Shown here: positions 7,564 to 40,148 of the stretch, piece by piece
Position numbering within the stretch: position 1 is the stretch's first letter
Layout: every line of letters starts with the position of its first letter
Notes under the pieces: model-generated
What the model was told of the DNA's origin: nothing
Databases searched by the model: none
Seen by the model: the letters and a program-made list of their open reading frames with translations, nothing else
Program-made: the position numbers and the translations under genes
NCBI GenBank assembly: GCA_050273025.1
Contig: CP158635.1
Location: forward strand, 15,500,001 to 15,564,000
Direction of reading: 5' to 3'
DNA from: Cenococcum geophilum
Lineage: Eukaryota
Length of the DNA: 64,000 nt

Positions 7564-7619
7564 CATCGGGAAAATATTCGCAGGATGAGATTCAAGTAGA
7601 CTTTGTTTAGCGCGTTTCG

Positions 7620-7969: not shown

Positions 7970-8298
7970 TATATACAATCTTATATAATCTTATATAATC
8001 TTATATAATTTTATACAATCTTATATAATCTTATATAATTTTATATAATCTTATATAATCTTATATAATCTTATATAATTTTATACAATCTTATATAATC
8101 TTATATAATCTTATATAATTTTATACAATCTTATATAATCTTATATAATCTTATATAATTTTATACAATCTTATATAATCTTATATAATCTTATATAATT
8201 TTATACAATCTTATATAATCTTATATAATCTTATACAATCTTATATAACCTTATATAATCTTATACAATCTTATATAGTCCCATATAGTCTTATATAG
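7970..8298 (+). repeat. 10-bp tandem array (TTATATAATC)n
   Basis: About 33 copies, directly visible. Confidence 0.95.
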
Positions 8299-8339
8299 GT
8301 TTATTATTATATTATATATTACAGGTTCTATACTAGCTT

Positions 8340-11300
8340 AGCTGCTTTTGCTATTTATCCTAGCTTCTATATAATAACGTGATGCGAGTTCCTTCTTTAA
8401 GAAAGTTGTCCGAGTATAGAGTATTATATTAGTCCCAATTAATATAATTATTAATATAGTACAAATCTGGATAAGAAGTAGCGGCTAGAATAATATGCGC
8501 GCTTTATAAAATAGATGGCATTAAATAAAAGCAACTACCTCTAAGTACTTGCCTAGTATTTACGCTTAAACGCGGCTACCTTTTCACCTTAACTATACCG
8601 TATATTAGATGCGGTAGTCTATAATTTAATAGCTAAAGCAGCTCTACTATAGCTCTAGTATACTGTATATATACACCGTACTTATCTAACCTTTTAATAT
8701 CTAGAATAGTAATAATTAGCTAAAGCTGGCCTATAAGTCTTCTACCTAACGGCGTGCGGCCCTTTCTAATACGGTTGCCGTTATCTATATACTCCTAGAC
8801 CTATATATAATCACGCCTCCACTAGTTAAAATATTGCTAATTTAGTGTGCAACATACTACCTCACTAATTTAGCCCTTAAGGTTAGTTGTATTTTTTCCA
8901 TCTCGTTTCTAACAGTAAATAGATGGATATATTTTAATAAGTAGGCGCTTAACCTATAAGGGGTCCTTCTCTTTCTGGTCTATATCGGAGTTCTAGGTAT
9001 ATTTACCTTATAGTTTTCGCCTATACTTTTGGATAAATACCGTAATGCCGTCTAGAAACCCTAGGATTTTGTAGTAGTTTGCTATATAAGATATATAAAG
9101 CCACGTCTTTAACCTAAGACGCCTCTAGATAAGATCTATTGCCCTATTTATATCTTCTAAAGGCTACCGAAGCTTTGCAACTGCTAAATACTATATTAGT
9201 TAAGTAACCTACACCTCTAGATGCTGGGAAGACTGTGGTATAGAATTACTATTTATAAAAGCTATTTCGTCTTCTATTGCTAGTACTACTACCCATCTTA
9301 AATTATAAGAGCAGATTTAAGATAGCGAATCCCGTTTATTTATTAAGTTATAAAACGCCTTAATAATATAATGGTGTCTAGCTTCGCCATTTACGCTAGT
9401 GCAGTACCCATCTACACATCTATATAGGCGGATATTTTCCTTAAAATATACAAGGGCATGGAATTTTGGTATATTAAAATAGCCTATATTAGAATCCTTT
9501 GCCTTTAGACGGAAACTTTAAAACATACCTTTAAGTATATTAATTTGATATAGGGCGTGGTGTATATATTATAGTGTCTCCTTATTATAGGTGTGATACT
9601 AAGCTATAATAACGAAGTTATATACGGCTCTTATAAAATGCATAGCATATAATTCCCTAGATAATAGTAGTGGGGCTAGTATAGCGATAAGTTAACGAAC
9701 TATAGCATTTTATTTATTACCTATCTATTAAGTAACTTTACTAAATAACAGGTTATTAAACCGTTTTAGCCCTATAAAAGCCGGGACTTATTTAAAACGC
9801 TAATTAAGCTAAGCCTCCGCAGACATATTTATTGTAGTTATTTTTATCCCTCTTCTCTTTCTTTTTAGCTAAATAATATCATCTACCAGTTTCCGTACCT
9901 ATTCAATAAGTCGTATAATAATACCCTTTAAAAGCTAATATAGAACATCTACTATTATACCCTTATAGATATTAAATAGGCGATAATGCTATATGAAATA
10001 TTTTACTAGGTATACCCAGTCGTCTAAGGATGGAAGAATATTCTTTAGTTTCTAGCGTTTAATCTATCTTCTTGTCTCCTTATAGGTGCGTAGCGGGTAT
10101 TATTTCTTAATTAAGTTCTCGCGCTTTAGAGGGGGGACTTAGTATATAGTGCAGTGCTGTCGGCTTTTAATACCTGTAAGTAGTATTTATTCTTTATAGT
10201 CTGCCATTATTCTATATATAATTAGATAACATCGTTATATAAAATTATTCGTATATTAAAGGTCTACGCCGCTTTCTATAAGATGCTTAATTGCTATTAT
10301 ATTTTAGTTAATAGAATATAGCGTTAGAATACTAAAGCAGGACTTACGTTTAAATATAGTTCTTATTGCCTTATAATATGCTTTACTTTTTATATTATTA
10401 TCTTTTTCTTTAATAACTGGTATAAAGCTAATAAGGATATTTATGGGGGATATCTATCGGCGCCGAACTTGTTAGTTAAGATTACTAATAGTAAGATATA
10501 CCGGCTAGGCCAATTTATCGCTATAGTATATTATTAGCTAGGTCTTATTAACTGCTATAAGTATAGGAACTACTATAGCACCGCTAGGAAGCTTACCTTA
10601 TATCTCCTACTACCAGTTACCGCTGTATAGCTTATTATAGACTTAGTGGTTTTTGGCATTATAAAGTCTCTTTAGTATATATACCAGTGCATCTTTAAAG
10701 GGTTAATAGCCAATTAGAAAGGTAATTACATTTATAATATCCTAGTAAAGAATATAGTATTCCCTCTACTTAGAGCCTTTAATATACAATTCCACCTTAT
10801 ACTCTAATTGGAGCTATTGTTTGTCTTATATACTAAATAGAATAGCGGTAATTAGTTCTTCCTATTAATTTATAAATTAGAAGCTAAGTAGGCTATAAAG
10901 TAGGCTAAGGTGGGTGTCTTTAAGTAGTGTATTAACGTCTCCCTTTATACAGCGAATGCGGTGCAGCTATATTAAAAAGACGTAATTAAACTCTAAATAA
11001 AAAGGATTATATAGTATACTTTGGCTATTATTGTGTTATAATATGGTAATATCTAAAATTGTCTAGCTAACTTACTATATATTATTATCAGTCTCGCATA
11101 AAATTGGTTTACCCGCCTTTATATTCTTAGTTGCTTTAAATATCTCTACTCTAAGTAATAATAATAACGATATAACGCTTTTCTAATATAGTATACCGTA
11201 TAGAGGCACTAGATAGGCATTCTGCTTATATTTTACCGCCACCGGAGCGTACTTATTGGTATCTATATTTATACTATCTAGTTATAATCGCGCGTTATTT

Positions 11301-11600
11301 AACCAATAAGAGTAGTAGAATTAATCGTGAATTATAAGCAGTCGGGCCGCAATAAATATATAAGTGTTGTATCTTTCTTCGCGTGCTTTTTTATAGACGT
11401 ATTAGTAGCTAGGTAGCCGCCTTTTATAGTACTATAGGTGTTAGTAAAGGCCGCCGTAACTCTTAGGGGTATAAGAACACCATAGATAGCTCTGCTGTAT
11501 TATCGCTAATTATATATTAAATAATATGGTATTATTTCTAGGTGTAAAGAGTACGTATTATAGTACTAACGGTTAATTGCCGGTATTGATTTATATAAGT
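8340..11600 (-). pseudogene. Plavaka transposase (RIP-inactivated, with introns)
   Basis: Minus-strand translation with RIP reverted gives LPSGA.VVPILIAVDKTQL..H.GDKLAWPVYLTIGNL.QQVRRR (~10590-10455) and FNIPKFHALVHFKENIRLYGC.DGYCT...GEAGH (~9479-9372). These are hallmark Plavaka motifs. The 5' end is uncertain. Confidence 0.85.
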
Positions 11601-14369: not shown

Positions 14370-17300
14370 TAATAGCAGCGCCATACCTAGACTCTAGTTG
14401 GTATTTAACTACTATAACTAATAAGAACTTATTATAAATAAGTGGTCTAAAGCTATAGTAAGGACTTGCGATTAACGAAAAAACATATAAAGAAATCCTC
14501 TAATACTATGCTAGCAAAATTAACGAAGCGTCTAGCGGTAGGTTGCTAGTATCCAGGCCTATACAAAATAGAGTTAAGCGTATAATCTTTAACCTTCTTA
14601 ATACTAAGTATAGGCACGTATTTAGGAGATCTAATCTACCATTAGAGTTTAAAGCTTTCGCTATCGCTGCTAAAAAATCTATATAGCGACACGTAATAAC
14701 TAATAGACGTAGAGGCGTAGAGGTTATAATAGCTAATATTATTTTAAAGTATAGCGGCTTATCTTCTAGAGAGCAGTCTGTTAACTTATCTAGATTAAGG
14801 GCAGCCTCTAAGGCTGCCTAGGTGCTTAGTAGTCTATCTATTAAAGTCCCACAACAGCTAAATACTACACCTATACTATTCTATGAAATGAGCTTTACTA
14901 TATATAGTTACCTAGACAAAACGCCATTAAATAGGGCCCCCATTCTATACTGATTTGCATTAAAAACTAAGTATAAGCATCTATTATCCAATTCTCCAGA
15001 GAAAGTTAATATATATTACTATAGATATAATAAGCTATAGGCCGCGATAAGTATAAACTTCTTGGCGGATAAATATAGGGATGGCTGGGCTATAGTAGAT
15101 CTAACCACCGGTATACTAATTCTTAACTATATAAACCTAGCATTTACAGTACTTTCTGCAAAGAAGGCTAGACTTAATATAATTATAATTAGAGTTAAAA
15201 ATCCTAATCGGATTATAAAGCGTAAGAGACTTTATAACTTATATAAAATTGTATAATATTATATAGAATTGTCTAACGTACGTTTATAGGTATAAAATTT
15301 AATAAAAGTACTTCTAAGTCCGACTCTAACCCTAATATTACACAACCGGTACTAACTAGGAGAAGAATAGGCATACCTGCCCTAGGTTGAAGTAGTTATA
15401 AGCAATCAATTTTAGAGTCCACGCTACCTATATCTAAGCAGTCAAATCCAAAGCCTATATTAACCCTAAAGTCCACGCTATCTATACCTAAGCAGTTAAA
15501 TCCAAAGCCCACATTAACCCTAAAGTCCACGCCACCTATACCTAAGCAGTTAAATCCAAAGCCTATATTAACCCCAAAGTCTACGCCACCTATACCTACT
15601 AGTGCATTATTAGCCGTATAACTGGCTATAATTAAAACTGCTCATAGCTAGACCCGTAGTAGTAAAGACCAGCCCCTACTAGATAAATTAAAGCTCTTAA
15701 AAGGCGTAGATCTAAATAAAGTATAAATATTTAAGATAATGCTATAGGATAAGATAAAAGGATAGTATAATAAATAGCTAAAGTCTAATCGCGAAATGTT
15801 TATTAATATATTATTTAAGGATATAAATAATAACCCTAACCTAATTTATATTAGGGAAATTAATCTTAACCGCATATAGGAGCGCCGCCACTTTAACGCC
15901 TTAATTAACCCTATTTCGACTAATAAGGAACTAGAAGATAAGCATAAGGATAGAATTAAGGAGGTTAATTAGGAAGTTAATTACCTAAAGGACGTATAAG
16001 AAGCATATATCAACCTAATATTATAGGTAAAGGCGCTACAGTTCCTCTTATTTCCGTTAACTATTCACAACACTCTTTAAGACGCAACCTTCTACTTATA
16101 CGGCATAAAAAAGGGTAAAGCTATATAGATATATTAGCTGCTTAGTATTACCTATACTCTTCGTAATTATACAGCCCTAGGTAGGACCTTTCTCGCGGAT
16201 ACGATGGGTTTAGGTAAGACACTTTAAATACTCTTAATCTAGTACACCAGCGTGTTAATAACTAAGATTAACCTTAACTAGCTTAATTGGATAAATTAAG
16301 AAGGTAGAGATAAAAGTCTCTACTTTACCCCTAATATAGATAAATACCCACAGCCGCCTAACGCCCAATACCCGAGTTAAATAGATAGCATGCTATAGTG
16401 CTATTATATTAAGGGAAGTATTACCAGAAAATTTCTTTACTGGCTAGTAGGACTAACTATATACATTACTAGATAGAATCTACTGCCCTAAGCGGTTAAA
16501 GACGTCAAATTATAGTTTAAAACCTCAGAACTAAATGATTATATTCCTAGAGGCAAACTATAAGTTCGCGTACGCCATTCGGCTTTTATTAGGTCTAGTA
16601 TAAAAAAGTACAATTTTACAGATAAAGATAAAGACATTCTTAAACCTATAAAATGCAAAAGAGAAGGTAAGAAGGTCTAGTGGAAAATAGACCTAAGATC
16701 GGCTTCGTATCATATAATTATAATATTATAAACTTAGGTAATAACCTAGACTGCTTAGGAATAGTATAAGACTATTTTTAATCTCTATAAAGACGGTAGT
16801 CCTCGTTATATCGTTAGTAAGATTCTTGCCGATAAGTTCTATATAGATAGGTTAGAGATAGGTTATCTAATAAAAATGGCCAAATAAGTATACAATAATT
16901 AAGTAGTATTTCCTCGCTTCTAACGCCCGGGCCTATCTTATAAGGACGGCAATAGTAAAATAGCCTACTATACCTCTCGACCTTTAGTAGTGTTTACTTC
17001 TAGTACACTAACTAGCGAAGGTTTTACAAGTCTAATTCCCGCCTTAGAAATTTTTAGGGCCCCCTAATTAGGCGGATTTCACAAATATAAAATTAATTAA
17101 TAATCGCAATATTAAAGCATTAATTAAATATAAAAAGCTAAGAGTAGCTAATTACTCTTCTCTTCCAAACAAGGTTATTACGGGCTTTAAAAAATGCTCC
17201 TCTTTAATTATAAAGATCTTAATTATATATAGGATAGGGAAAGACTAATGGTTTAATAGGAGGGTGATTAATAAGCTACTACTAGTCGTCTACTAAGACT

Positions 17301-18290
17301 GCTATATAACGAACGATTTAATATTCAAACTGTATATTAATAAGCTCTGGTATAGAGCATCCTTAAATTCTTTTAAATAGCTAAATAAAGCTTTTAAACA
17401 CTAGAAAGCTAAAGGAAGAAAAGAAGAAAAACCCGTCTTTAATATAGATTAATTTCTAAAGGGAGCCGGTTACTTATTAAAAATTTTTACTATCTTTCTA
17501 GGCCTGGCTAAGGTAGGAGATAAGTAGTAAGATGTGTAGTAGAAGGATAAGGTAAAAGTTAGAACAAAGCTAAAGTAGACAGTTAATAAGTTTCGCAGTA
17601 AAAAATAGGATAAACCTTTAGACAAGAATTTGCTTTAGAGGAATTAGAGTATAATTACTAACTCTAGAAAACTAAAGCTAATTATAAAATACGTTAATAA
17701 AGTACTTAAAAGGAATCCTAATAAGAGACTACTGTTTAGTAGTTATAAACTAGCAGCATATACGCTATTACGCCTTATAAGTTAGCTATTAGACTAATAG
17801 TAAACTGTTACTAATAATATAATATAGTATTTCTATAAAAGGCTTAGCCAGTCTAAATATTTAACTATTTACTAGATAGAGTTTAGGATATCCCTAAAGG
17901 ACTAAAAAGATATCTATAAAGCGTTTTATATTCTAATAGGCAGTCCTTACTAAAATAATATAGTCTAGTTTCTTATTATTAACCAAAGGGTTAGAGGAGA
18001 GGGTCTAAATTTAGTCTCTATATATAGAGTCCATCTGCTTAAACCGGCGACAACGGTAAATATAAAAGTATAAGTATTTGGCCGGGCTACTAGATCTAGA
18101 CAGTTAGCGCCAGCAGTTACTATATTAATAACGTATAGTATAGATAGGTGGAACCTAATTAATATAGTTATGTTAGCGAGGCGTACAATAACTAAAAGGA
18201 TAACAATTAATAAGTTCTATAAGGTGTTTAAAACCCAACCTACTTAGCAGGCTAATAATAATATAATGGAAATAGCGTAGCTAGTATAGT
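14370..18290 (+). pseudogene. SNF2-family (SF2) helicase/ATPase cargo gene, RIP-inactivated
   Basis: Motif I G.TFLADTMGLGKTL (~16180-16224), motif II ILAD(E)F(H) (~16822-16842), motif III FTS(G)T(P) (~16993), motif V GEGLNL (~17996) and motif VI QVFGRATRS(G)Q (~18071-18103). Introns near 15278-15360 and 17777-17828. It is uncertain whether 14370-15270 belongs to the same gene. Confidence 0.8.
15417..15600 (+). repeat. 54-bp (18-codon) tandem repeat, ~3.4 copies
   Basis: GTCCACG/GTCTACG at 15417, 15471, 15525 and 15579. Reads SPRH..(P)SSQIQSPHQPQ with RIP reverted. Confidence 0.85.
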
Positions 18291-18408
18291 CGGAGCAGTG
18301 ATCCCCTATAATAAGAGTGTGTCTTAGTATAATATATATATATATAGATAATATACCACTATTTAATATTGTGTAATATATTATCTTAGTTTTAACCACT
18401 ATATAAAA

Positions 18409-20710
18409 GTATAGGCCACCTTATATATGGTACTAATATTACCCCACCAAAATACTTATAACTTAAGAACTACTATAGTTATTTATATAAAATTTTAAAT
18501 ATAGCTTATTAAATAGTAATTTAAGCTTTTTATAAAAAAAATTAAAAAAAATTTAAAGCTATTTTATATATAGTTTTAAAATACTTATAGCTTAATAACT
18601 ATAATAGCTATTTATATAAAAATTTAAATATAGCCCACTAATTAATATATTAAACTTTTAATATAATTAAAATAAAATACTATAAAATATTTTATAAAGA
18701 GTTTAACTTATTAATTAGTAAGCTATATTGGTTTTTATATAAATAGCTATTATAATTATTAAGCTATATATTAGCGACTTAGTTAATTAAGGCACGAGTA
18801 TAAACAAAGGGACGCGTAAGCCTATACAATTAGTAGTCTATAAACGAGGATCTAAAGCTAGAGAAAGGAAAGGAAAGGGCGGCGCTATTTAACGTTATAT
18901 ATAATCCTCTAATTATATGACGGCAATTGTCTAAAACTATCTAAAACTGTCTAAAACTGTTTGCAATTGTTTACTACAATTTACTAATATCTACTAGTTT
19001 CCACCAGCGCCATAACACTATAAGTATTTTAAAACTATATTTTAATATAAAATATAAAATAAAACTATATATAAAATAACTTTAAAATAAAGAAATTTTA
19101 TTTTATAAAAAGCTTAAATTACTATTTAATAAGCTATATTAAATTTTTTATATAAATAACTATAGTAGTTCTTAAGTATAAGTATTTTAGTAGGTAATCT
19201 CTACGTAGCCGAAATAAGTGTCGGTTTGGGGCACGTGCGCACCCACCAAAATCATGCTTCACGATCATTGTTTACAACACCATAATACAGCCAAATCAAT
19301 TCAATATTGAGTTATCTGCCCGTCAGCCCTAATGCACTCATGCAGGCGCTTCGTATACCAGCTGTACATCTCTGCAATCTTCTCCTGATCCACTTAATTC
19401 TCCTAAACATCTATAAAACGCTCCAATGCTATATCCTCCTCTTCTACGCGCTTTAAATGGAACTTCTTCTTAACAGGATGGGCTAAGGACTCCATAATTA
19501 ATAGATCTGGTAATAAACCAGGCAATATTAGAAGCTTTAAGTCCCATTCCTTTGCCTAGGCTAAAGACTCCCTTAATTTATGCGCTGAATCTGCATCCTA
19601 ATATAAAGTAATTCCCTTAATATTAAACTTTAAAAGAAGCCATGGCAACACCTGCTCGGTGTAGGCTTTTAAGCTTATTTTGCCCACCTAGTTATCTACC
19701 TTATATAAGAAGAACTTCTTCTAGGTCCTGCCAATAACAATAAAGACATTAAATAGTTTAAGATACTTCTTCTCTCGGGCCTTCTCCTTTTTATCCTTTT
19801 TAGTAACTCCCTTCTTCCTATAAACATTCTGTGGCAAATAGCGGTAAAGATTACCACTCCTTCTCTTAATTCTATGGGTTTCTTCTGCACCTAAACCAAA
19901 GTGATATTTATTATAAAAAGCAACATCATTCCAGTCCTTGGGATGAGGTCTTTCTTTTAGCTATAAATAGTACCAATTCTTCCTTTTATCTGCCTGCTCT
20001 AGGTTAAGCCACTTCTCTTCCTCTATCTTTGCATTAATATATCCTTTATCCTCTTTTATAGCTCTTTAAATTGGCTTATTTCTAAGAGGTTAGCAACCTA
20101 TTCTCCGAGTTAGAACCATTAGAAGATCTTTGTAATTTAGGGCTTTTTAAACAATAGTCTGCCATGGGGCTAATTTTGAGTCTTAATTGAGATTAGGGTT
20201 GTCCAAATATATGGCAATAGCGTAGGTGTCTTCCTTTGTAAGGGCTCGATTTCTCCCTCTTATTTCTAGCCTAGAATTGTGTATAGTTTTATATTGCTTT
20301 AAGGCTACAATACGTTACTAAGAGCGCTCAGCAATTCCAGTAGCCTGCTGTATAATAGCTAGAGGAATAGCCTTGCCCAGTAATTAGCCAAAGATTTTGG
20401 CGTAGAGAACTCCTATGCGTGGAGGAGTCTTTGGATGCTTATTTTCCCTAACGTTATAGTATAATTCTAGGGGTGGGGTAAAGTATTTAGCCCGCATCTT
20501 TCGGGATACAGGCTCCTTAGTGACTCGGGTCATAATTGGTAATTGCACCGAACGAATTTGGGTGCGAAATGGTGGTGTCGTGAGGTTTGTTATGATTGAG
20601 GCATGCTTAGGGGCTTTGTTTGGGTAGGGCGTGCACGTGCCCCAAACCAACACTTATTTCGGCTACGTAGAGGTAATATAAGGTGGGACTATGCACAAGG
20701 TGGCCCATTC
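18409..20710. mobile_element. Foldback/MITE-like element with ~200-bp AT-rich inverted arms, right arm interrupted by Tc1
   Basis: 18437-18592 is the inverse of 19017-19198. The outer ends ATAGGCCACCTTATATAT (18411) and ATGCACAAGGTGGCCCAT (20691-20708) match after RIP. No clean TSD was found. Confidence 0.65.
19199..20672 (-). mobile_element. Tc1-family (DD34E) DNA transposon, 1474 bp, lightly RIPed
   Basis: ~45-bp TIRs CTCTACGTAGCCGAAATAAGTGT(C/T)GGTTTGGGGCACGTGC. Transposase starts at ATG ~20533, with AF.(D)(E)YHFG, (Q)DADSAH and PG.(S)PDL(S)IME. There are 34 residues between the second D and E. Confidence 0.9.
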
Positions 20711-20899
20711 TAAAAAGTTTGAATTTAGTCTGGATTAATATTACTTTAGCTACCAACTACTTCGACACCTATTAAGTAATCCAGCCTACTAACTTTCGTT
20801 CCTATATACATAAATAATTCCTATTAAGGTATATCCTCTCTACTAATAGATTATATATATATATTATCTTTATTATTCTAAAAGCCTAATCAATACGTA

Positions 20900-21937
20900 A
20901 GAGGATCCTCCCGTTAGTAATGGTTTTTAAAATCTTACTATCCTATATAAAAACTTTTCACTACTAATGATTACCAGCTCCCACCCGCATGCTATATAAT
21001 GTCTATATAAAATCCCTAACGGCGAAGAAAAGCGTACCCTAATTATTCTATTTAATCTACCTCCTACCTTTTTCTATAGGTATAAGATATCGAATTAACC
21101 TATAATATAATGCTAACTAGAATAATTGGTAAACCTAGCTCCGTCAGATAAATATGCTTAATAATAAGGACCGAAACCCCATTACTATTAAGCCTATTAT
21201 ACTTTAAAACGAAAGGGCTATTATTAATATTAGTACGTTTTAAACGCACTTTATTAGCTAGCACTAATAGATATAGGTTAATAGGCTACCTACTACTTCG
21301 TATTTAACGGTTCTAAAAATAATAGGGTAAAACATGCTATTATTTATTGTGCTCTTACCAATTATAATAATTAATTCATTATAGGCTAGAAACTTAGCCT
21401 TAGATAAGTAAAAGGCAGACTTTTAGGATATATTAGATATATTATAGACGAAACCTTTATATAGCCTACCCGTATTAAAATACCTTAATAGCAGTACTAT
21501 ACTATTGGATTTCGCTATTAGGCATTAGAGTAACTAAGCAACCTTAAGTCTTCCCCTTATTACCTAACCCTAAGCCTTATCACGTCGCTAAGACTCTTAT
21601 ATTATTAAGTTTCATTATATTACTAAGTATTATTACATTGCCACTAAGCCTTATTACGTCGCCAAGCCTTATTATATTATTAAGTCTTATTACATTACTA
21701 AGTCTTATTATATCGCCATTAAGCCTTATTATTTCACTAAGCCTTATTATATTGTTAAATCTCATTACGCTACCAAGTCTTATTGCATCGCCGTTAAGCC
21801 TTATTATATCACTAAGCCTTATTATATTATTAAGTCTTATTACGTTACCAAGTCTCATTGCATCGCCATTAAGCCTTATTACGTCATCAAGCCCTATTAC
21901 ATTACCGCCGAGCCTCCTAGCCAGATTAGGCAATTAG
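20900..21937 (+). pseudogene. RIP-degraded cargo ORF of unknown function ending in SPSLIT-like repeats
   Basis: Two plus-strand GT..CTAA(C/T)..AG introns (~21080-21120, ~21234-21270), coding-like sequence, then 18/21-bp repeats. Confidence 0.4.
21572..21915 (+). repeat. 18/21-bp tandem repeats (AAGCCTTATTACGTCGCC-like)
   Basis: About 17 units, directly visible. Confidence 0.9.
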
Positions 21938-23104
21938 ACGTTACGAGTGCGACTCCTAAGCATAGCGGGTTCGATTCCCACTTATCACGCATTAAAAATA
22001 TTAAAAAAGAAGGTCATTTCCTATTAAATTAGGCGTTAGTAAGGCTCCAAATTAAGCTTATATTTTCGTACATATCTTATAACGCCTAAAGTCATACATT
22101 TAATGAAATTTTAGCACTATATACTAAGCATATCGGCTCTTTTACGCCAAGTTTTAATTACGTTAGGCTAGCTCTAAATCAAAGCATAAGGTAAAACATA
22201 CTATACCACTACGCTATAAGGACTTTAGAATATAATCTTATAAATTTAACTAAATTATAACCCCTTTTTAAACCTTACAATCAAACCAGATCCTTAGGGA
22301 GAGATCCCTATATTAAATCTTAGGGAACGTTTGGTAGCGACTTTAGATTAAATCTAAAGGCCCTAGAATATATCCGATCTAAAGCTTAAATCTAATTCTA
22401 ACGTAATCGTTTAGTTAATCTAGCGACTTTCTAATCTAAAAGCTCCTCTAGATTAGCAAGCGCGTTAAATTTATAAGCTATACCATATATAGAATCTAAA
22501 CTAAGGTTTTAGCGTTAGTTTAAATTAGGAGCTTAAAGCTTATCTAAAGCCTTATAGAAGGATTAACTTAATTTTAGATTTTAGATTTTAGTAAGTAGTT
22601 AATCTACTATAGTCCAAAATCTTAATTATTAGAAATTTGGGGTGTCTTTGCCACCACAATAGCAAAGGCACCTTAAGTTTAATACCACGCTAAGCATTAC
22701 AACTTTCCTACAGTAACTAAGCAATTATAGAACTTACCATACCACTGCCCGTAAAGGCCCTTAGTTATAGTCTTATGAATTTAATTAAAATATAAACACC
22801 TTCCTAAATCTCACAATTAAATATTTTTACGTATAGCACTATGCCAAGATCACGATACAGATTGCTTAGATATAGCTTTACTACAATATAACGGCTCTAC
22901 GCTAATCGATTAATCTACGGCTCTAAAATCTAAATCTATAATACTAAAAATAAGCTCTAAGCTACTGATTTTATATTAGCAGAACGAAACTTAGTAAGAG
23001 ATTTAAGCAGTAAAATTACTACTAAGAGTTACTGCCCGGATCCTAGCCAATAAATACCTATAACTATAATCTTAGTAAATAGCAAAAAGTATATAGCAGT
23101 ACTA

Positions 23105-23420
23105 AGACAATAGTAGGACAATATAAAACAATAATAGGACAATATAATATAATGGTAGAATAATGGCAAAACAATATAATATAATAGTAGGATAATAATA
23201 GGACAATATAACACAATAGTAGGGTAATGATAGGATAATATAACACAATAGCAGGACAATGACAGGACAATATAACATAATAGTAGGACAATAATAGAAC
23301 AATATAGTATAATAGCAGGATAATAGTAGGATAATGTAATATAATAGCGGGACAATAGTAGGACAATATAGGATAATATAACATAATAGTAGGACAATAG
23401 CAGGATAATATAAGATAATA
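23105..23420 (+). repeat. Degenerate 10-21-bp tandem array (AGGACAATATAACACAATAGC-like)
   Basis: Directly visible. It accounts for the Y/C/L-rich minus-strand ORFs in the track. Confidence 0.9.
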
Positions 23421-23489
23421 TAAAAACGTAAAATATAAAATATAAAAAGAGGGAGCCCTAATACTTCCTCTTCTTCCTACCCCTACGGC

Positions 23490-24700
23490 CCTAGCGCCCA
23501 ATGTAGTGTAATATCGTCTATTCGTATAAGTGATAGTATTAAGACGGTTACTTTAAGTAATATGCCTAGATAACTAGTCTAGCGCATGGTTTATATAATA
23601 TGTAATAATAATAGGGGGATCTCCTATTATTATATTGCTAAGCAACGCCTTTAAAGCTATGTTTTTCTAGTGCTTAGAGGTTCTTAGATTATTATAAGAC
23701 GCTTTATAAGAACTCGTTTTAGCGCAGTAGCTTTAAGCCCCATAGTAGTTATATCTAGCTAGTCTTTAAGAATATAAATATTCTTAAATAAGGAAGCATC
23801 CTTAATAGCTATAATTGAGCTAAGATCCGTATAAGGCTTATTTATAACGTATTGTGGTGCTTTAATATTCTGTTAAACTTAAATAAGGTGTTCTAATAAC
23901 GGGAATCTATTAATAGTTAGATATCTTCTTATTTAGAAAATATCGCACACTTACAGCTCTCTTATTAGCTTTTATAATGCTAATATAGTGTAGCGACTAA
24001 CTTCGTAAAATTTAGTTCGTTCCTTAACTATTGTCTATAATACGGATAAGTTAATCTTAATCTCTTTAGGTCTTAAAGAATAAGTTAACCTTTAGAGGAT
24101 TCTGTTTTAATACGGCTAATAGTCTCGCCGCCGCTATTACGAGTATATATTTCGTTTAAAAAATATTAATCTTAGGAGTTAAAGCAACTAGAGACCTAGC
24201 AACTAATCTTTTTAACTAATCCTAACAGATCATCTTCCCTACTCTCTTAAGTAAGAACGCCACGCGGATTACTAGCCCTTAAGGTAAAAAATATTACTAA
24301 GCTAATATGGGCCTTATAGATATTAGGGGATAACTACTTTAGAATTATAGTATGCTTACCTATTTATATATACCAATTCCATTACTATATCCAGATTTTA
24401 GCAAACTAAAAGGGTCTGCTCTAATTTAACCCACTACTTCTCTTAACAGTTTAATTATATCTTCTTTTAAAAGATTATACTAAGAGCTTAGATACTCCTT
24501 TATTAAGCCAGACGGACCTAAGACTTGTTAACTTATAGTAGAATATCTCCGTTTTCGCTAATAATATTCTGGCCCTTATTAGGGATATTAAGTATTTTGG
24601 CGGAGGTTAGGACCTCTAATTATGCTAACTAGGCTTTACTAGTTAAGGGCTAACTAGGCGTTTTAAAGTATTAATAAATATAGTTACTAGTACATATTAA
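23490..24700 (-). pseudogene. sad-3: N-terminal fragment of SAD-3/Hrr1 (ZNFX1-like SF1 RNAi helicase), two introns, RIPed
   Basis: With RIP reverted: RVGKMIC(W)D(QS)KRLVA(G)SLVALTP (~24240-24175), AAAR(P)LAVLKQNP(P)KV(D)LFF, MV(E)ERT.FYE.SRYT.LAL(Q)KL.RE, FPLLEHL, Walker A KRL.II(QG)P(PG)T(G)KT (23704-23660) and ALKALL.N...GDPPIII....NHALD(Q)L (~23660-23570). GTAAG..AG introns at 24359-24313 and 23954-23907. Confidence 0.8.
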
Positions 24701-25072
24701 GCTACCTAGAAGGGATTTATATATATAGAACTATAGCGCTATAGCCTAGAGGCTGTATACGTAGTATTATACGTAGTATAATATAATAGAGATTAAAAAA
24801 AATTTATATATATATATATAAAAAGTATTAACAAATCTGGGTGCTAAATCGAGCTTATTAAGACAGAGGAGACGTAAAATAAATAGGAGGAGGCTTATAA
24901 GTCTAGGTAGTATAGTGGGTAAAAAAGCATTTATTAATACGCTTATTTATTTCTTATAAAATATTTAACTAATTATTTTATATATAACTAAATAATATAG
25001 TTACTATCTACACAATCCTGTATATCGGTCTTAGCACGTAATTAAGACGTCTTTCCTACTGTACCTCCCCTA

Positions 25073-25812
25073 ATGCTTTTAGAATTATAGCACTAATAAT
25101 AAACCTAAGCTATAACACCAAAGACACTCTTAAGCGAGATCTTAGGGTTATAAATAAACAATACAATACGATCTACTATAATATTAAAATTAAAATGTCG
25201 ATGTACAGGCTCCTTAGATAGCCACTACGCTCCCTTATAAGTAAGGTATAAATACGGCAAATATTAAACAAAATCTCTAATAAATTCCTATTTGTATTTT
25301 TAGGTTTACCTAAAAATTTATATACTAAATATATTAAACAACTTGCCTAGCGCTGTAGCTATAACGCGACGCGTTAAATAAATAAAACGGCTTCTATTAG
25401 GCAAATTATAACAGGTAACCCAGTACTCCCATACTCCGCTATTACGCATTATCTACTAGCCGGCATACTAAAGGCAATAAGGTAGGAGGGAACACTAAGG
25501 TTATATAGGATAATAATAATACTAATTCAGCGGGCAGCTAATAAAGAGCTAATAATTATCCTAACCCAAAAGCTAGCGACCGGTAAGAATAACGCCCTAA
25601 ATATACACGTTAATAATCTAAGCTTTAATATATTTATAGATATACTAGGCTAGGATATTAACTTTAACCCTAAGAGCGAAACACTTTACTACTACATTGG
25701 CAATAAAATAGCCAAAGGACGAATTCAGCTTATAAACGAAGAGAAATGGCGTAGTGCGGTTAAGGATATATTTCTACAAGAAATAGATAGGTTTTTATTT
25801 ATAATAGAATAA
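25073..25812 (+). pseudogene. RIP-degraded cargo ORF, unknown function
   Basis: Long coding-like frame ending ...GRIQLINEEKWRSAVKDIFLQEIDRFLFIIE*. The stops are RIP-type. Confidence 0.5.
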
Positions 25813-26399
25813 AGAAGAATAAGTAGGTTACTACTTAAAGTTAATTCAGCGTTACTAACTCGTATTTATAGTCTGCGCTGCTAGCCAAAAATAATATAAT
25901 TACTTACCCTCCATTTCCGCACCCTTACCTTTACTAGACAACTCGCACTCTATATATATAAAAATAGGTAGAATAGGTAAACGGGTCAATACTAAGGTAA
26001 TACTTAACCTATAGCCATCCCAAAAAACCTCTCCTAGTTAAAAAAGAGCCCTCACTCTACGCCTTAACCCGTAATAGAAAAGGCGAAGGTAACTATAACC
26101 GCAGTATAGATTATACGCCTTAAAGCCACTGCTTTATTTGGAATACTTACTAGTTTAATAGATTACCATATATAAAGGTAGACGGCTTAATATTAGAGCC
26201 CTTCGGCGTGCTATTAGGCGAGGGAGTCTTAGAATAATATATCCTAGGATATTCTTATAACTTATCTAGCATTCTTAAAACGCCTAAGGGGATTAGATAA
26301 TAAAGCCTAAGGTTTATACCTATTCTTTTTAGTAAACTTATTAGGGTAATATATGTTAACACTGTCCCTAGCTTACTCTTAGTATCCAACATCTAATTT

Positions 26400-27100
26400 T
26401 TATATCTATGCTTACGCTTTCCTTACTATTCTACTAAATTTAATTGCTGTTGCGATATATATATAGGGGATAAGTTAGGCTTACTATAGGCTAGCGGGGT
26501 TAACGACACGGAAGAATAACGTTAGATATTTGCGGTAGAAATACTAGGTGTTGCATAAGGGTGTGGAATATGGCGATATAACTATATAGAAGTGTTATTG
26601 CTGTCCTATATGCCGCCTATGCCTACCCTAGCATTATCTACACTGGTAAGCTATACGGATAAGGTAGATAAGCTTTGCTTTAAGTATAAGACAAGTATTA
26701 AACCTAGTATAGGTGGACCGGAATAAGGTATAGGATCTAAAAGCCGGCGCCCTAGGTAGGTAAAGTAGTTTAATAAGGTACCTCCCTATTAAATTTAGAC
26801 ACGAGCCTTACTAGCCTACTGCTTTTATTGCTAGGATTAACATTTAACTTTTCGTATACCTATACTATATCTGCTAAGGGATATGCTAATAGAATAAAAT
26901 AGTTTCGCGTATAATAGCAAATAGTATTAGACAATCTTTAACTATATAATAATATTTTCTTAACTACTAACTTAACGCGAGTTAATAGGTCGCGGTCGCG
27001 GCTTAACCGCAACCGGTTAGAACTAGCAGCTAATTATAACAAATACACCCCTATTTAAGTTATTTGCAAGCACTATAGTAATAATACTCCTATTAATACT
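26400..27100 (-). pseudogene. RIP-degraded cargo ORF, unknown function
   Basis: Coding-like frame SRDRDLLTRVKLVV.K...KDC.ILFAIIRETILFY... followed by a P/S/Q-rich tract. Confidence 0.4.
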
Positions 27101-28800: not shown

Positions 28801-28949
28801 ACGTATGGGTAGCGCAAGGCATGACAGGTATATAGGCTAGGGTTTAACGACGCGCCCGAACTAATTATAGAACTACTAACTAATTATAATTTTATTACAC
28901 TAGATTACACAAAGGTATTTTGCCTATACTATTTAGTAAAATACTAATA

Positions 28950-29956
28950 AGAGTTAATAGCTAAGTAATAACCGCTTCCGTTCCGACGTAATAGTTACTA
29001 GTATAGCTAGTATATTTTACGGTAGAGGAAGGAACGGCCTTACCCGATTACCTTACTCTTATAATATATTTAAAAAGCTTACCAGTAATACTATTACTTT
29101 TGTTTTAACAGCAATATATTATATAATTAGGGAGTATAGAACTAGGTCTAAGGAAACGGACAACTTTTATAGCACTATTATTAGTGGTTAGTATATATCC
29201 GGTGTTTTACTACCTATTATTATTCTCTAACCCGTTGTAGAAGCCTATACTAACCTCTTAGGCGGCTAAAACCAGATGTCTAGAAAACGGCAATCTAAAA
29301 TCTAGCTATGGCTTTAGCCTATAGTTATTAAACATGCTATAGGCCTAATGCCGGATTAATTAACTATAGAAATTATTAAGGACCCGTATAAAGATGACCT
29401 TAACGACCTTATAGCGGATCTAAGCAATAATATAAGAGAGAGGTTCCTCGCAAGCCTTAGCAATAACGAAACTAACGCGATTATTAACTTAGGCTATTTA
29501 TTAGTAAGCTAGGCTATACTATCTAATCTACTAAGTCTGTCTTAAAGGGAGAGCTCTAGAGTAGGCCAGACTAGTCCACTAAATCCGTCTTAAAGGGAGA
29601 GCTCTAGAGTAAGCTAGAAAATCTAGGGCCCTACTACTACTATAATATTTGCTAATTTAACTTTTAAAACTAGCTAAGTTTGTTAGATTTAGCAGAATAT
29701 ATATCCTCCGCCCTAGTGTATTACTTTATCCTAAATATAGGAACCGGCGAGCCTAGGCTAAAAAGGTTTAAATCTAATAAGTTATTTATATAATTTAAGC
29801 AGTACTACAGCCTTATAGAGGACAGCTATAGCTAGTATAGTAATGGGAAAGCAATATTAAATTTAATTAAGAATAAGGAGTAGTATATAAAGTTTATAAT
29901 ATATACTCTGGACTCTAGTATAGAGGAGCCGGTAGAGTTTTTAGTAGGAGATTAGG
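28950..29956 (+). pseudogene. RIP-degraded cargo ORF, unknown function
   Basis: Coding-like frames PYKDDLNDLIADLS...ERFLASL and ...TLDSS.EEPVEFLVGD*. Contains a ~51-bp internal duplication at 29525-29615. Confidence 0.4.
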
Positions 29957-31192: not shown

Positions 31193-31284
31193 TAAATAAA
31201 TTAATAAATATCTATATAATTTCCTATATAATTATTTCTATAAATTTTATAATTAATTACTAGTATAAAAATATATATTTATAC

Positions 31285-31772
31285 GCCTATATAAGGCTCT
31301 ATATAAAGTTCTATACAAGGCTCTGCACAAAGCTCTATATAAGGCTCTACACAAAGCTCCGCTCGAAGCTCTACTTAAAGCTCTACTCGAAGCTCTACTT
31401 AAAGCTCTACTCGAAGCTCTGCTTAAAGCTCTGCTTAAGCTCCTCAAAGCTCTGCACAAGGCTCTGCTCGAAGCTCTGCACGAGGCTCTGCACGAAGCTC
31501 TGCACGAGGCTCTGCACGAAGCTCTGCACGAGGCTCTGCACGAAGCTCTGCACGAGGCTCTGCACGAAGCTCTGCACGAGGCTCTGCACGAAGCTCTGCA
31601 CGAAGCTCTGCACGAAGCTCTGCACGAAGCTCTGCACGAAGCTCTGCACGAAGCTCTGCAGAAGCTCTGCACGAATCTCTACGCGGAGCTCTGCGTAGGG
31701 CTCTGCGTAAGCCTCTACTAAAGCTCTACATAAGGCTTTATTAAAGCTCTGCGCGAGGCTCTACCTAAAGCT
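31285..31772 (+). repeat. 12-bp minisatellite (GAAGCTCTGCAC/GAGGCTCTGCAC)
   Basis: Same family and orientation as 858-1330. Confidence 0.95.
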
Positions 31773-32344
31773 TACCCCCTTCTATAAAGCAAATCTATAC
31801 CTACTAGTAGTCCTTAGTTATTATTTAAAGCTAGCTCGTCGGTTTGGGTACTCTGGCTGCGGTAGGAAGAGGTCATAGGAAAGGTGCGGCTGCTACGACT
31901 CGGGGGCGTCGGGCGCGATAACGAGATAACAAATTGGAATCGGGCAAATCGGGCAACGTAGTCTTCTTCGCCAGGTTTGATTTGGTAATTCTAGCCGTTA
32001 GGAATAGCTTAGGGAGCTATAGAAGTTAAGACAATTTGGCTCAAAGTAGGTGTATATAGGCCTAAATACCCCGCGCAGGACTAACAAAAATCCGAACCGT
32101 GTACCAGACCTTCTAACAAAGGTCTTGCCAAAAGCGGCTAGCGGCTTGGCAAGGTAAGCCTTGGCAAGAAGGTCTGGGAACGAGACAATGGGAGACGGGC
32201 GATCGAGCGTCGTCGATATTCGAAATTTCCATTTTCCCAATTTTATTTCTTACTACTTGTACTACCCCTACCTATTAACCACAACCTTACGGAGTATGGT
32301 ATAGTCATCCCGGAGGAGTTTCCTATTCGCTAGAGCTCATAGAG

Positions 32345-35170: not shown

Positions 35171-37288
35171 TAGCAGAAAACGGCAGAATATAGTAGAATT
35201 TAGCAGATAGCTATCTTAGGGCTTTAAGGCGTTCTTATCCCTATACTCCTCTAGTAATTTATTATCTTTATTATACTAGCATTTTATCTACTTATCTAGG
35301 TACTTTAGGGGTCTAGGTATATTAGGGTATTAGTTATAAAACTCTTTAAGCTTCTAGAGGTAGCTTATAAAGTTCTATATAGGGTACTACATTAGGAAAA
35401 TATTTATAGAATAAGATTTAAGTAGACTTTATTTAGCGCGTTTCGCGTAATTAATATACAATTAATTAACTTAATATATAACTTAACTAACTTAATATGC
35501 AATTAACTAACTTAATATATAACTTAACTAACTTACTATATAATTAACTAACTTAATATGTAATTAACTAACTTAATATATTTAAAAGTTAAATAATATA
35601 CAGTTAACCTACTTAACAACTTTAAAAGCTAACTGCATATTCCTTAACACGCAATTAACTAACTTAACAACTTTAAAAGCTAACTGCACATTCCTTAATA
35701 TGCAATTAAGGTAATATAATATATTATTTTAAAGTTATATACCAATTACGCAAATGAATTTTTACTATTATCTTAGCCTATAGTATACTAGCTTATAATA
35801 TATATTAGGATTAAAATAATTATATATAATTTTATATAATTTTATATAATCTTATATAATCTTATACAATCTTATATAATCTTATACAATCTTATATAAT
35901 CTTATATAGGTTTATTATTATATTATATATTATAGATTCTATACTAGCTTAGCTACTTTTACTATTTATTCTAGCTTCTATATAATAACGTAATATAAGT
36001 TCCTTTTTTAAAAAAGTTATATAAGTATAGAGTATTATATTGGTCCTAATTAATATAATTATTAACATAGTATAAATCTAGATAAGAAGTAGCAGCTAGA
36101 ATAATATGCGCGCTTTATAGAATAAATAGCATTAAATAAAAGCAACTACCTCTAAGTACTTGCCTAGTATTTACGCTTAGGCGCGGCCACCTTTTTACCT
36201 TAACTATGCTATATGTTGGATGCGGCAGTTTATAATTCAATAGCTAAAGCAGCTTTACTATAGCTCTAGTATACTATATATATATATATATACTATACTT
36301 ATCTAACCTTTTAATATCTAGAATAGTAATAATTAGCTAAAGCTGGCCTATAAGTCCCCTACCTAACGGCGTGCGGCCCTTTTTAGTACGGTTGCTGTTA
36401 TCCATATACTTCTAGACCTATACGTAATTACGCCTCTACTAGTTAAAATATTACTAATTTAGTATATAACGTACTACCTCACTAATTTAGCCCTTAAGGT
36501 CGGTTATATTTTTTCCGTTTTATTTCTAACAGCGAATAAATAAATGTATTTTAATAAGCAGGCGCTTAACCTGTAAGGGGTCCTTCTCTTTCCGGTCTAT
36601 ATTAGAGTTCTAGGCATATTTACCTTATAGTTTTCGCCTATACTCTTAAATAAATACCGTAATACCGTCTAGAAACCCTAGGATTTTATAATAGTTTACT
36701 ATATAAGATATATAAAGCCATATCTTTAACCTAAGACGCCTTTAGATAAGATCTATTGCCCTATTTATATCTTCTAAAAGCTACTAAAGCTTTATAACTG
36801 CTAAATATTATATTAGTTAAGTAACCTACACCTCTAGACACTAGGAAGACTGTAGTATAGAATTACTATTTATAAGAGCTATTTCGTCTTCTATTGCTAG
36901 TACTACTACCTATCTTAAATTATAAGAGTAGATTTAAGATGGCGAATCCCGTTTATTTATTAAGTTATAAAACGCCTTAATAATATAACGGTGTCTAGCT
37001 TCGCTATTTACGCTAGTATAGTACCTATCTGCGCATCTATATAGGTGGATATTTTCCTTAAAATATACAAGCCTGAGGGCATGGAATTTTAGTATATTAA
37101 AATGGCCTATATTAGAATCCTTTGCCTTTAAACAGAAACTTTAAAACACGCCTTTAAGCATATCAATTTAATATAGGGCGTAGTGCATATATTATAGTGC
37201 CTCCTTATTATAGGTGCGATACTAAGCTATAATAACGAAGTTATATACGGCTCTTATAAAATGCATAGTATATAGTTCCCTAGACGAC

Positions 37289-38990
37289 TGTGACGGCGCT
37301 GGGGCGCGTCACCTAGTCAGGGGTTCGCTTAGGACTTGGCATGTGTATATGGACGTGGCCTCACCACCTTCTCTTGCTCCTTAGCTTAATATCTTCGTAA
37401 TACAGCATTCGTTCGCTTCTCCTTGCAAGCATTCATTTAAGTCTCTGTCGAGACATTTGTTTGACAGTTCGAGCCGTCACATTATATTAAGCTCCCCAGT
37501 CATACGCAGGCTGCGGTATCTCAGGTCTCAGGTTCCGTATAGGCTGATCGTGCATGCGTGCGAGCGACACCTATAGCTTCTCTTAGGTTTACCCCAGGCT
37601 CGCGTTTCTTCTTCTTTATTATCATTATTATTATCATCATCTTCTTCTTCTACGATGGACCCAATGCAGGCTTTTGCAGACTTACAGGCCCAGGTCGCAC
37701 AGCTGCAAGCCGAAGTCCAATTTTTACGTTCTATAACGACCACCCCCTCCCGACCGAAGCCCTCCCTTCTAGACCCCGAAAAGTTCAACGGACACCCTTA
37801 TAAATTTAATACTTGGTTGCCATCGATTAAGGCAAAGTTACGGGTTGATAGTGCGGCTATTGGCGATACAGTCGCGCAGTTCTACTACGTGTACTTGAAT
37901 CTCGATAGCAGCGTACAGGCAATAGTTCTCCCCCAGCTTGGACAGGCAGAAAAGTCAAATACGTGGGATTACAATACAATTCTTGATCAGTTGGTGCGCG
38001 TCTACGATAACCTGAACAAGGTGCAACAGGCAGAGGATAGGCTGCTGTCCCTACGGCAAGATAACGATTTAGTACCGACCTATATATCAAAATTCGAACG
38101 CGTTCTGTACGAGGCAGACGGGCAGAATTGGCCAGATGTTAATAAGATATCAATATTTAGGAACGGGCTAAGCACTACCATCCGTAGTAGGCTTAATTAG
38201 CAGCTTAACCTACCGAAAAAATACCCTGATTTTGTTCGAACCGTTCAACAGCTAGCTGGCCGATTGTCTTCTTATTCTACGGTACAGTCTTCTAGCAACG
38301 GCAACGGTAACGGCAACTACTATCGCGGAGCAGAGCCTATGGATATCGGTGCTATTGGAATTAACGCAATTGATACCTCTACCTCCGCACGATCTATCTC
38401 CGCACGATCTACCTCCGCACGATCTACACCCCCACAATCTACTAGTTCCCCCATGGGACCCCGCGCTCGGTCTATGTCACCAGCTTATAGAGAACGATGT
38501 AGATTGGAAGGACGTTGCGTACGCTGTGGTGCACATGACCACTGGGTTGAAGATTGTCTGCTAGAGCCGTTTAAGAAGCAGATTAGTATGACAGCCCTCT
38601 GTGACTATAACCAGGCTCTCCAAAAATAGGCTCTCCGCGATCTGGCTACCTATAATCAGGAATTTAAATCGGATTTGGATATAGATGAGGAAATTGGTTG
38701 GTTATAAAGGGGTGAGATTTAATCTATTTACTGTATGTAAGATAGATAAGCACCTAGAGAAAAGCCTAAGGGCAGGCTTTTTCAAAGAGGGGGGTGATGT
38801 GACGGCGCTGGGGCGCGTCACCTAGTCAGGGGTTCGCTTAGGACTTGGCATGTGTATATAGACGTGGCCTCACCACCTTCTCTTGCTCCTTAGCTTAATA
38901 TCTTCGTAATACAGCATTCGTTCGCTTCTCCTTGCAAGCATTCATTCAAGTCTCTGTCGAGACATTTGTTTGATAGTTCGAGCCGTCACA
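37289..38990 (+). mobile_element. Gag-only non-autonomous LTR retroelement (1702 bp)
   Basis: 193-bp LTRs at 37289-37481 and 38798-38990 (TGTGACGGC...GCCGTCACA), TSD ACGAC, PPT AAAGAGGGGGG before the 3' LTR. No pol. Confidence 0.95.
37655..38629 (+). pseudogene. gag: Ty3/Gypsy-type Gag with zinc knuckle, one in-frame TAG
   Basis: ORFs 37655-38200 and 38264-38629 are in the same frame, separated by TAG at 38198-38200 (likely CAG). Motifs DPEKFNG, EPMDI and CVRCGAHDHWVEDC. Confidence 0.9.
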
Positions 38991-40148
38991 ACGACAGTAG
39001 GAGGGCTAGTATAGCGATAAGTTAACGAACTATAGCTTTTTATTTATTACCTATCTGTTAAGTAACTTTACTAAATAATAGATTATTAAACCGTTTTAGC
39101 CCTATAAAAGCTAGGACTTATTTAAAACGCTAATTAAGCTAAGCCTCCGTAGATATATTTATTATAGTTATTTTTGTCCTTCTTCTCTTTCTTTTTAGCT
39201 GGATAATATCGCCTATTAGTTTCCGTACCCATTTAATAAGTTATATAAATAATACCCTTTAGAAGCTAATGTGGAACGTCTACTATTATACCCTTATAGA
39301 TATTAAATAGGCAATAGTGCTATGTAAAATATTCTACTAAGTATACCCAGTTATCTAAGGATGGAAGAATATTCTCTAGTTACTAGCGTTTAATCTATCT
39401 TTTCGTCTCCTTATAGGTATATAGCGGGTATTATTTCTTAGTTAAGTTTTTACGCTTTAGAGGGGGGGCCTAGCACATAGTATAGTGTTATTGGCTTTTA
39501 ACACCTATAAGCAGCACTTGTTCTTTATAGTCTGCTATTATTTTATATATAATGAGATAACATCGTTACATAAAATTATCCGTATATTAAAGGTCTACGC
39601 CACTTTCTGTAAGATGCTTAATTGCTATTATATTTTAGTTAATAGAATATAGCGTTAGAATACTAAAGTAGGACTTATATTTAAGTATAGTTCTTATCGC
39701 CTTATAATATACTTTACTTTTTATATTATTATCCTTTTCTTTAATAACTCGTATAAAGCTAATAAGGATATTTACGGGGGATATCTATTAGCGCTAAACT
39801 TATTGGTTAAGATTACCGATAGTAAGATATACTAGCCAGGCCGATTTATCGCTATAGTATATTATTAGCTGGGTTTTATTAACTACTATAAGTATAGGAA
39901 CTACTATAGTACCACTAGGAAGCTTGCCTTATATCTTCTACTACTAGTTACCGCTAAATAGCTTATTATAAACTTAATAGTTTTCGGCATTATAGAGTCT
40001 CTTTAGTGTATATACTAGTGCATCTTTAAAGGGTTAATAGTTAATTAGAAAGGCAATTATATTTATAATATCCTAATAAAGAATATAATATTCCCTCTAT
40101 TTAGAGCCTTTAATATTTAATTCTACCTTATACTTTAATTGGAGCTAT

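Follow-up and report, generated by a model that had tools for sequence, protein, structure and literature searches.

A RIP-degraded fragment of a ZNFX1/Hrr1/SAD-3-type helicase gene in repetitive DNA of Cenococcum geophilum

In Pseudocercospora fijiensis and its relatives, a hAT transposon captured histone H3, which was multiplied to hundreds of copies, all of which except the original were mutated through RIP (repeat-induced point mutation), and in Zymoseptoria tritici a DNA methyltransferase was multiplied into tens of copies, every one mutated by RIP, the original included, with loss of cytosine methylation; so the passages of PMC6710886 on these two genes report. Here, we analysed a stretch of 64,000 nucleotides (nt) of the Cenococcum geophilum contig CP158635.1 (positions 15,500,001 to 15,564,000; hereafter the window) and found at 23550-24957, on the minus strand, a RIP-degraded copy of the internal 5' part of a helicase gene. 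We consider it likely that this piece of the gene was copied into a repeat, amplified together with its flanks and mutated by RIP, and that it is now an inert passenger.

In Neurospora, unpaired pieces of sad genes dominantly suppress meiotic silencing, an effect that requires near-identical sequence and a meiotic cross. Besides the helicase SAD-3 (NCU09211), N. crassa has the paralogues NCU09357 and NCU05861, as the part of PMC5384783 on this family states. Plavaka/CMCT DNA transposons of fungi carry captured TET/JBP dioxygenases and may thereby counter silencing, and Plavaka elements have the termini TGT..ACA or CATCA..TGATG and a target duplication of 2-3 bp, according to the portion of PMC12730594 that describes them. 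The original prediction for the present locus saw a captured SAD-3/Hrr1 fragment within a giant Plavaka element and suggested that the fragment could act against host defence.

Origin and structure of the relic

The read-through translation of the minus strand at 23490-24800, in which RIP-made stops were translated through, matched the ZNFX1 domain PF25396 (E 1.6e-9, 38.2 bits at a cut-off of 27). With phmmer, 107 proteins among 1.84 billion representatives were found at E<=0.001, 42 of them at E<=1e-10 and the best at 3e-23, far more than chance would produce. All six full-length homologues examined combine ZNFX1 with AAA_11 and AAA_12 over 1077-1290 residues, and in tblastn 14 of 14 full-length homologues were collinear with 24536-23556, using residues ~70-440 only; at E<1, further matches fell only in the 31.4-31.7 kb tandem array of 12-nt period and at a single position at 58 kb (E 0.9). 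The relic itself gave no Pfam match to AAA_11 or AAA_12, and the C-terminal helicase half was found nowhere in the window. Because the relic stops after motif Ia and has neither AAA_11 nor AAA_12, it is a fragment of a ZNFX1/Hrr1/SAD-3-type superfamily 1 (SF1) helicase gene and not a member of the family itself. At least 7 of the 120 homologues listed bear the source name Hrr1-like, and none from Sordariomycetes, Neurospora or S. pombe appears among the names of the 20 representative clusters or the 120 matches listed. The read-through query returned 0 matches in a PDB search and nothing in a protein word search.

The intact form of this gene is complete at two loci, L001 (on a 202-kb contig) and L002, each on a metagenome contig from a close relative; the two are 96% identical across 11.6 kb, flanks included, have a GC content of 45-48% and are without RIP signature. 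On both, the frame is open over 995 codons once two introns of 47 nt and 48 nt are removed, and is followed by C-terminal exons that are Cys-rich (judged by eye). In L001, exon 2 encodes the ZNFX1 domain (E 5.8e-33) and exon 3 encodes AAA_11 (E 9.3e-26) and AAA_12 (E 2.6e-38); among solved relatives ZNFX1 ranks first (9q9z_A, E 4.9e-85), with UPF1 far behind (5e-33). The best named relatives are Dothideomycetes, namely Mytilinidion resinicola (67%) and Lindgomyces (64%). The two alleles differ by 26 synonymous and 30 nonsynonymous codons over the 995, and the resulting ratio of nonsynonymous to synonymous rates of ~0.4, a rough estimate from two alleles, points to a functional gene. Its neighbours are housekeeping genes, namely a SPT8 beta-propeller, a HAD hydrolase and DUF7918, and in L002 eIF-5A.

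Both loci emerged when metagenome contigs were scanned with P0122, a 305-residue protein from an ENA contig; four loci were obtained in all, L004 among them, and viral contigs scanned with P0122 gave no match. By eye, P0122 differs from the L001 translation mainly as G>A and C>T changes predict (C>Y, S>N, V>I), and it reads across the intron, which joins exon 1 and exon 2 in one frame; its source may be a lightly RIP-mutated repeat copy rather than the gene. A cluster of short metagenome open reading frames, P0010 (40 members), looks near-identical to the relic after reversal of RIP, even where the frames enter an intron. On L001, we also observed an AT-rich, RIP-positive block at 15000-20914 (TpA/ApT 1.6, GC 0.37), which starts ~1.5 kb downstream of the helicase gene and holds repeat pieces that occur in the window as well; L002 has genes at that place.

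Alignment to these contigs, together with RIP-aware local alignment for the boundaries (200 shuffles as control), divides the relic and its border as follows.

23550..24957, minus strand: whole relic, equal to L001 10066-11340, codons ~29-422 of a protein with a minimum length of 995 residues (MAFFT against L001 and L002)
24832..24957, minus strand: exon 1 remnant, 5' part (MAFFT and RIP-aware alignments)
24675..24831, no strand: 157 nt present in the window copy only, a ~147-nt insertion resembling a miniature inverted-repeat transposable element (MITE) plus a duplicated 10-nt target TTAATACTTT (alignment gap)
24360..24674, minus strand: exon 1 remnant, remainder (alignment to L001)
24313..24359, minus strand: intron 1, retained, 47 nt, GTAAGC...AAG; the L001 frame is open once it is spliced out (0 stops in 995 codons)
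23955..24312, minus strand: exon 2 remnant with the ZNFX1 domain (Pfam match ~24057-24296)
23907..23954, minus strand: intron 2, retained, 48 nt, GTAAGT...TAG, with a CTAAC branch site
23550..23906, minus strand: first ~380 nt of exon 3, with a Walker A remnant and motif Ia; homology stops at 23550
23098..23427, no strand: tandem array of 32-nt period, immediately 3' of the break and outside the gene

Beyond 23550 and 24957, RIP-aware local alignment found no homology above the shuffled controls: the upstream flank scored 14.5 (shuffle mean 13.5, maximum 17.5) and the downstream flank 17.0 (mean 13.4, maximum 19.0). The L001 start codon (9980 or 10001) lies outside the relic, which begins 65-86 nt past it; a relic that includes the start codon was ruled out by the upstream score, which stays below the shuffle maximum. 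Also missing are the promoter, Walker B (at codon 693 of L001) and the AAA_12 or C-terminal helicase half. Of 383 codons compared in the reading frame of the gene, 24 are stops in the relic, 115 are replaced and 244 remain the same, and the relic has suffered deletions of 1, 2, 9 and 13 nt in addition to the one insertion of 157 nt. The 13-nt deletion cuts the Walker A remnant, which starts at 23683. In the same frame the relic reads *D*LKRLVARSLVALTP at 24224-24174 and NHALD*L, motif Ia, at 23591-23571 (asterisks are stops), and the intact L001 gene has WDQSKRLVAGSLVALTP, AARPLAALEQNPPEVDLFF, IIQGPPGTGKT and NHALDQL. Both introns are retained, so the copy was made from DNA.

Much of what had been predicted from the letters of the window thus stands. 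The piece does derive from a ZNFX1/Hrr1/SAD-3-type gene; all four motifs claimed on the minus strand are present, and the L001 gene reads exactly as they had been restored by reversing RIP; the truncation directly after motif Ia agrees with the 14 homologues, whose matching residues reach ~440 at most; the two introns kept (24359-24313 and 23954-23907) bear out capture at the DNA level; and, in close relatives at any rate, there is an intact original elsewhere. The proposed interval, 23490-24700, located the relic correctly and misplaced both its ends, and the 5' 126 nt were overlooked, which sit beyond the 157 nt that only the window copy has.

The decay of the relic follows one pattern. Identity to L001 extends to 994 of 1250 aligned positions (79.5%), and among the 256 substitutions in the direction from gene to relic, 219 are C>T or G>A, the others being 22 transitions in the opposite sense and 15 transversions. 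By context, 129 of 167 CpA sites, 60 of 123 CpG sites, 17 of 132 CpC sites and 13 of 163 CpT sites are mutated, and the RIP indices of the relic are 1.57 for TpA/ApT and 0.42 for (CpA+TpG)/(ApC+GpT). This substitution pattern is a RIP spectrum. Since differences of the non-RIP type amount to only 37 of 1250 (3%), little above the 1.7% by which L001 and L002 differ, the source allele was very close to those of L001 and L002 and the copy is not ancient. The same small distance makes the relic useful as a marker for dating the repeat family.

The MITE-like insertion has a history of its own. Both copies of the target TTAATACTTT share a C>T change that L001 lacks, and for this reason the insertion probably entered the relic after RIP. 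It is present in very many copies in the public runs: the bin around it (24618-24818) exceeds its neighbours in depth by a factor of 15-25 in each of the three DNA runs described below, with summed depths of 47609, 8839 and 18967 against ~300-3400 in other bins. A few RNA reads touch it as well.

Copy number and repeat context

Is the fragment a single stray copy or part of a repeat? Within the 64 kb of the window we found no second copy of the relic. Parts of the stretch occur in twenty public runs, which come from two coded organisms, from root metagenomes and from a soil metagenome; the best run contains only half of the words sampled from it. We mapped two isolate runs (X1, X2), a root metagenome (X8) and an RNA run (X21) on 21000-27000, divided into 30 bins. 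Short contigs of 90-99% likeness numbered 4345 in X1, 4780 in X2 and 4246 in X8 and covered 30 of 30 bins; they split ~1:2:3 among likeness classes of >=99%, 95-99% and 90-95%, and the differences among them are almost exclusively transitions. Inside the fragment, the listed variable sites (23872, 24012, 24169, 24206, 24438 and 24636) are each represented by 9-22 distinct contigs in X1, 14-23 in X2 and 4-24 in X8. Summed depth in X1 is 739-3356 for fragment bins and 734-3207 for flanks, ~30-100 times the 12-41 of single listed contigs. The whole 6 kb, fragment included, is one repeat with tens of diverged copies, in line with the predicted repeat-borne state of the fragment. The locus L004, on a 98-kb contig from the same metagenome as L001, is itself RIP-mutated and carries 158 nt of the fragment amid repeat families of the window.

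An ordinary pseudogene, produced by segmental or ectopic duplication without a transposon and surrounded by repeats that alone supply the multi-copy signal, is an unlikely explanation of these data. The lack of a definable carrier transposon, the single copy in the window and the mere 158 nt on L004, in a different context, would all fit such a pseudogene, but the fragment bins match the flanks in contig density and summed depth in three runs, and the distinct contigs counted at each listed variable site (9-23 in X1 and X2) lie inside the fragment. Contigs at least 90% alike cannot stem from the intact gene, because that gene is only ~80% identical to the relic and falls below the likeness threshold.

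We give next to no weight to the view that the relic is the original helicase locus, destroyed in place by insertions and RIP. The AT-rich, RIP-like block that borders the L001 gene indeed places such decay near the locus, but the L001 flanks, the start codon region and the 3' 60% of the gene are without homology anywhere in the window, the flanks of the relic are themselves multi-copy, and RNA reads of X21 end, at a loose end at 24525, in letters that fit an unmutated allele.

We return to a captured and amplified gene piece. According to this explanation, a 1.27-kb genomic stretch of the fungus's own ZNFX1/Hrr1/SAD-3-type SF1 helicase gene, reaching from within exon 1 through intron 1, exon 2 and intron 2 to the first 380 nt of exon 3, would have been copied into repetitive DNA and, along with its flanks, raised to tens of copies, by transduplication or another repeat-mediated amplification. 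The copies would then have been mutated by RIP, the MITE-like insertion would have come later, and the window copy would be left as an inert passenger. The gene origin, the copying at the DNA level, the RIP spectrum, the truncation, the multiplicity of fragment and flanks and the intact original in relatives are direct observations; what we infer from them is copying by a transposable element, capture before amplification and the absence of a present function of the relic.

Several points weigh against this explanation. Summed contig depth is not copy number, and we took the count of distinct contigs as the safer measure. At the junctions, 23550 and 24957, no bridging contig was seen and no loose ends occur among those listed; 412 loose ends exist beyond these, and the case for co-amplification draws on contig density being equal and on no listed loose end falling at either junction. 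The intact gene was seen in the close relatives L001 and L002 rather than in the genome of the window itself. A carrier-defining transposase, terminal inverted repeats or target duplications were not found in the scanned region. Finally, the fragment may have had a function before RIP.

The carrier was sought by Pfam scans of read-through translations, in six frames over ~35 kb and in three frames over 8.4 kb; the six-frame scans take in 11-35.4 kb, save for 17.9-20.7 kb on the plus strand, and 1-7500, most of 35401-38990 and 55201-64000 lie outside all of these scans. No match to a Plavaka or KDZ family was obtained at E<=0.01-0.1 in these scans. The sensitivity of Pfam on RIP-mutated DNA is limited: a Copia-like polyprotein at ~49-53 kb that is visible by eye gave no match either, and a missing match is for this reason weak evidence. 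Inverted repeats bracketing the region were searched at 11-31.5 kb, where we found only the ends of a Tc1/mariner element and a local pair at 18.4-19.2 kb. The giant Plavaka element of the original prediction is thus unsupported, with neither a Plavaka/KDZ match in the ~35 kb scanned nor terminal repeats, rather than refuted.

The window as a whole is AT-rich (GC 23-47% per kb, mostly ~30-35%), strongly marked by RIP (TpA/ApT 1.65, (CpA+TpG)/(ApC+GpT) 0.46) and a mosaic of degraded repeats with several tandem arrays among them. Three further elements were placed in it.

~28895-29195, plus strand: DUF6532 relic (PF20149), E 1.9e-7, above cut-off, RIP-mutated, 4 kb from the helicase fragment
19199-20672, minus strand: short, nested Tc1/mariner element with inverted ends at 19199-19244 and 20627-20672 (46 nt, 93% identical)
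~41000-44000, minus strand: Ty3/Gypsy pol relic with RVT_1 (E 8.6e-15), RNase H (2.3e-22), integrase and SH3_Tf2-1

The DUF6532 relic could belong to the carrier element or be a captured gene in its own right; a protein word search with the read-through of its region was without match. The Tc1/mariner element carries a sub-threshold DDE_3 remnant (E 1.1e-5) and, at a GC content of ~38%, is less affected by RIP than its surroundings. A motif resembling SNF2 motif I, LADTMGLGKT, stands at 16198 within a sub-threshold SNF2-rel_dom match at ~16137-16570 on the plus strand (E 0.007, 15.9 bits at a cut-off of 24.9), and this stretch is possibly a second RIP-mutated gene fragment. The Copia-like polyprotein, at ~49800-52800 on the plus strand, was recognized by eye only.

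A segment of 3.4-5 kb occurs twice in the window, at 7543-10991 and 35369-40498, in direct orientation ~28 kb apart and at 82-93% identity; it recurs on L004 (7215-9825) at 56-62% and has no Pfam domain on its plus strand. The second copy of this RIP-mutated repeat encloses an island without RIP (37289-38990, GC 44-47%), in which two 193-nt direct repeats (98% identical) flank open frames with a Retrotrans_gag domain (E 1.4e-8) and a CCHC knuckle without pol; it looks like a recent gag-only long terminal repeat element. Tandem arrays of 12-nt period at 880-1370 and 31273-31790 are common to two places 30 kb apart and yield spurious open frames and weak protein matches. A 'DGNFK' motif at 9508 proved a dead end. 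The Pfam scans also produced low-complexity noise.

Possible effects on the host gene

Could the fragment have interfered with the gene from which it came? A repeat-borne piece might suppress the host silencing helicase through small RNAs, through exposure of the gene to RIP or through a dominant-negative N-terminus, and each of these routes had been put forward in the original prediction. We regard suppression of this kind as improbable. What speaks for it is that the fragment is multi-copy, that its gene belongs to a family which includes SAD-3 and Hrr1 (roles as given in the relevant part of PMC5384783) and in which Hrr1-like recurs as a source name, as noted above, and that tens of young, unmutated 1.27-kb copies could conceivably trigger repeat-induced RNA silencing.

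Each route meets evidence of its own. A dominant-negative product of the window copy is excluded, as this copy lacks a start codon and contains 24 stops across 383 codons, four deletions, among them frameshifting ones, and one insertion. With 79.5% identity to the L001 gene and a single exact run of at least 21 nt (23 nt, none of at least 25 nt), cross-silencing of the host gene is now unlikely; the window copy would supply few matching small RNAs, and less-mutated copies may exist elsewhere. Leakage of RIP into the host gene, for which the prediction had itself suggested a comparison over the shared interval, was found in neither L001 nor L002: at 10066-11340, TpA/ApT is 0.59-0.60 and the substrate index 1.25-1.30, the same as in the remainder of the gene, GC is 0.473 against 0.46-0.49, the interval accounts for no more than 11 of the 30 nonsynonymous differences, and both alleles are open over the 995 codons. 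Neither meiotic silencing nor sex is documented in the source organism.

The RNA data point the same way. The RNA run X21 contributed 42 reads, all matching the stretch in part, none at least 99% alike and 41 less than 95% alike; among the public runs listed as holding the stretch, there is no RNA run. Because the loose ends of X21 at 24525 spell the unmutated allele (four reads, from 12% of one run), they suggest that the intact gene, and not the relic, is transcribed.

A more specific sequence of events, in which a repeat took the 5' third of the host helicase gene and its young copies triggered small RNAs against the helicase before RIP froze them, appears to us a shade less probable still than suppression in general. 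Were it true, a transposon would have blunted RNA-based genome defence by transduplication in a large, repeat-rich, root-associated ascomycete; and if less-mutated copies yield small RNAs against the gene, this would be a rare case of a repeat interfering with the silencing machinery of its host.

Comparison with known systems

In its architecture the source gene resembles Neurospora SAD-3, S. pombe Hrr1 and human ZNFX1, with a ZNFX1 domain, an SF1 core of AAA_11 and AAA_12 and a Cys-rich C-terminus. With NCU09357 and NCU05861 also present in N. crassa, SAD-3 is a candidate orthologue of the source gene. The relic shares with the sad pieces of Neurospora that it is an extra, ectopic piece of a silencing-type gene, but at 79.5% identity to the gene it differs from the near-identical pieces that act there. 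With the Plavaka/CMCT transposons it has a captured host gene in common; unlike Plavaka elements, it comes without a Plavaka transposase in the scanned 55% of the window, and the Plavaka families in the portion of PMC12730594 cited are reported from Agaricomycotina, whereas the present fungus is a Dothideomycete-like ascomycete.

Closer parallels are found in Dothideomycetes, as far as the passages cited from PMC6710886 describe them. Like the methyltransferase of Z. tritici, the helicase is a putative genome-defence gene whose copies number in the tens and were mutated by RIP; unlike there, the original is intact and without RIP signature in the two relatives examined. Like histone H3 of P. 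fijiensis, it is a host gene of a Dothideomycete amplified in repeats, with AT-rich blocks, copies inactivated by RIP and an intact original. The two cases differ in that the piece captured here is an internal 5' part (codons ~29-422) with two introns, in that its copies number tens rather than hundreds, and in that a silencing-type helicase takes the place of a housekeeping histone, for which the carrier was a hAT element. The pattern matches transposon-aided gene amplification followed by RIP, as already known in Dothideomycetes. To this the present locus adds a case in which the captured passenger is a partial, intron-bearing fragment of a helicase gene of an RNA-silencing family, and an example of RIP sparing the original while destroying tens of passenger copies.

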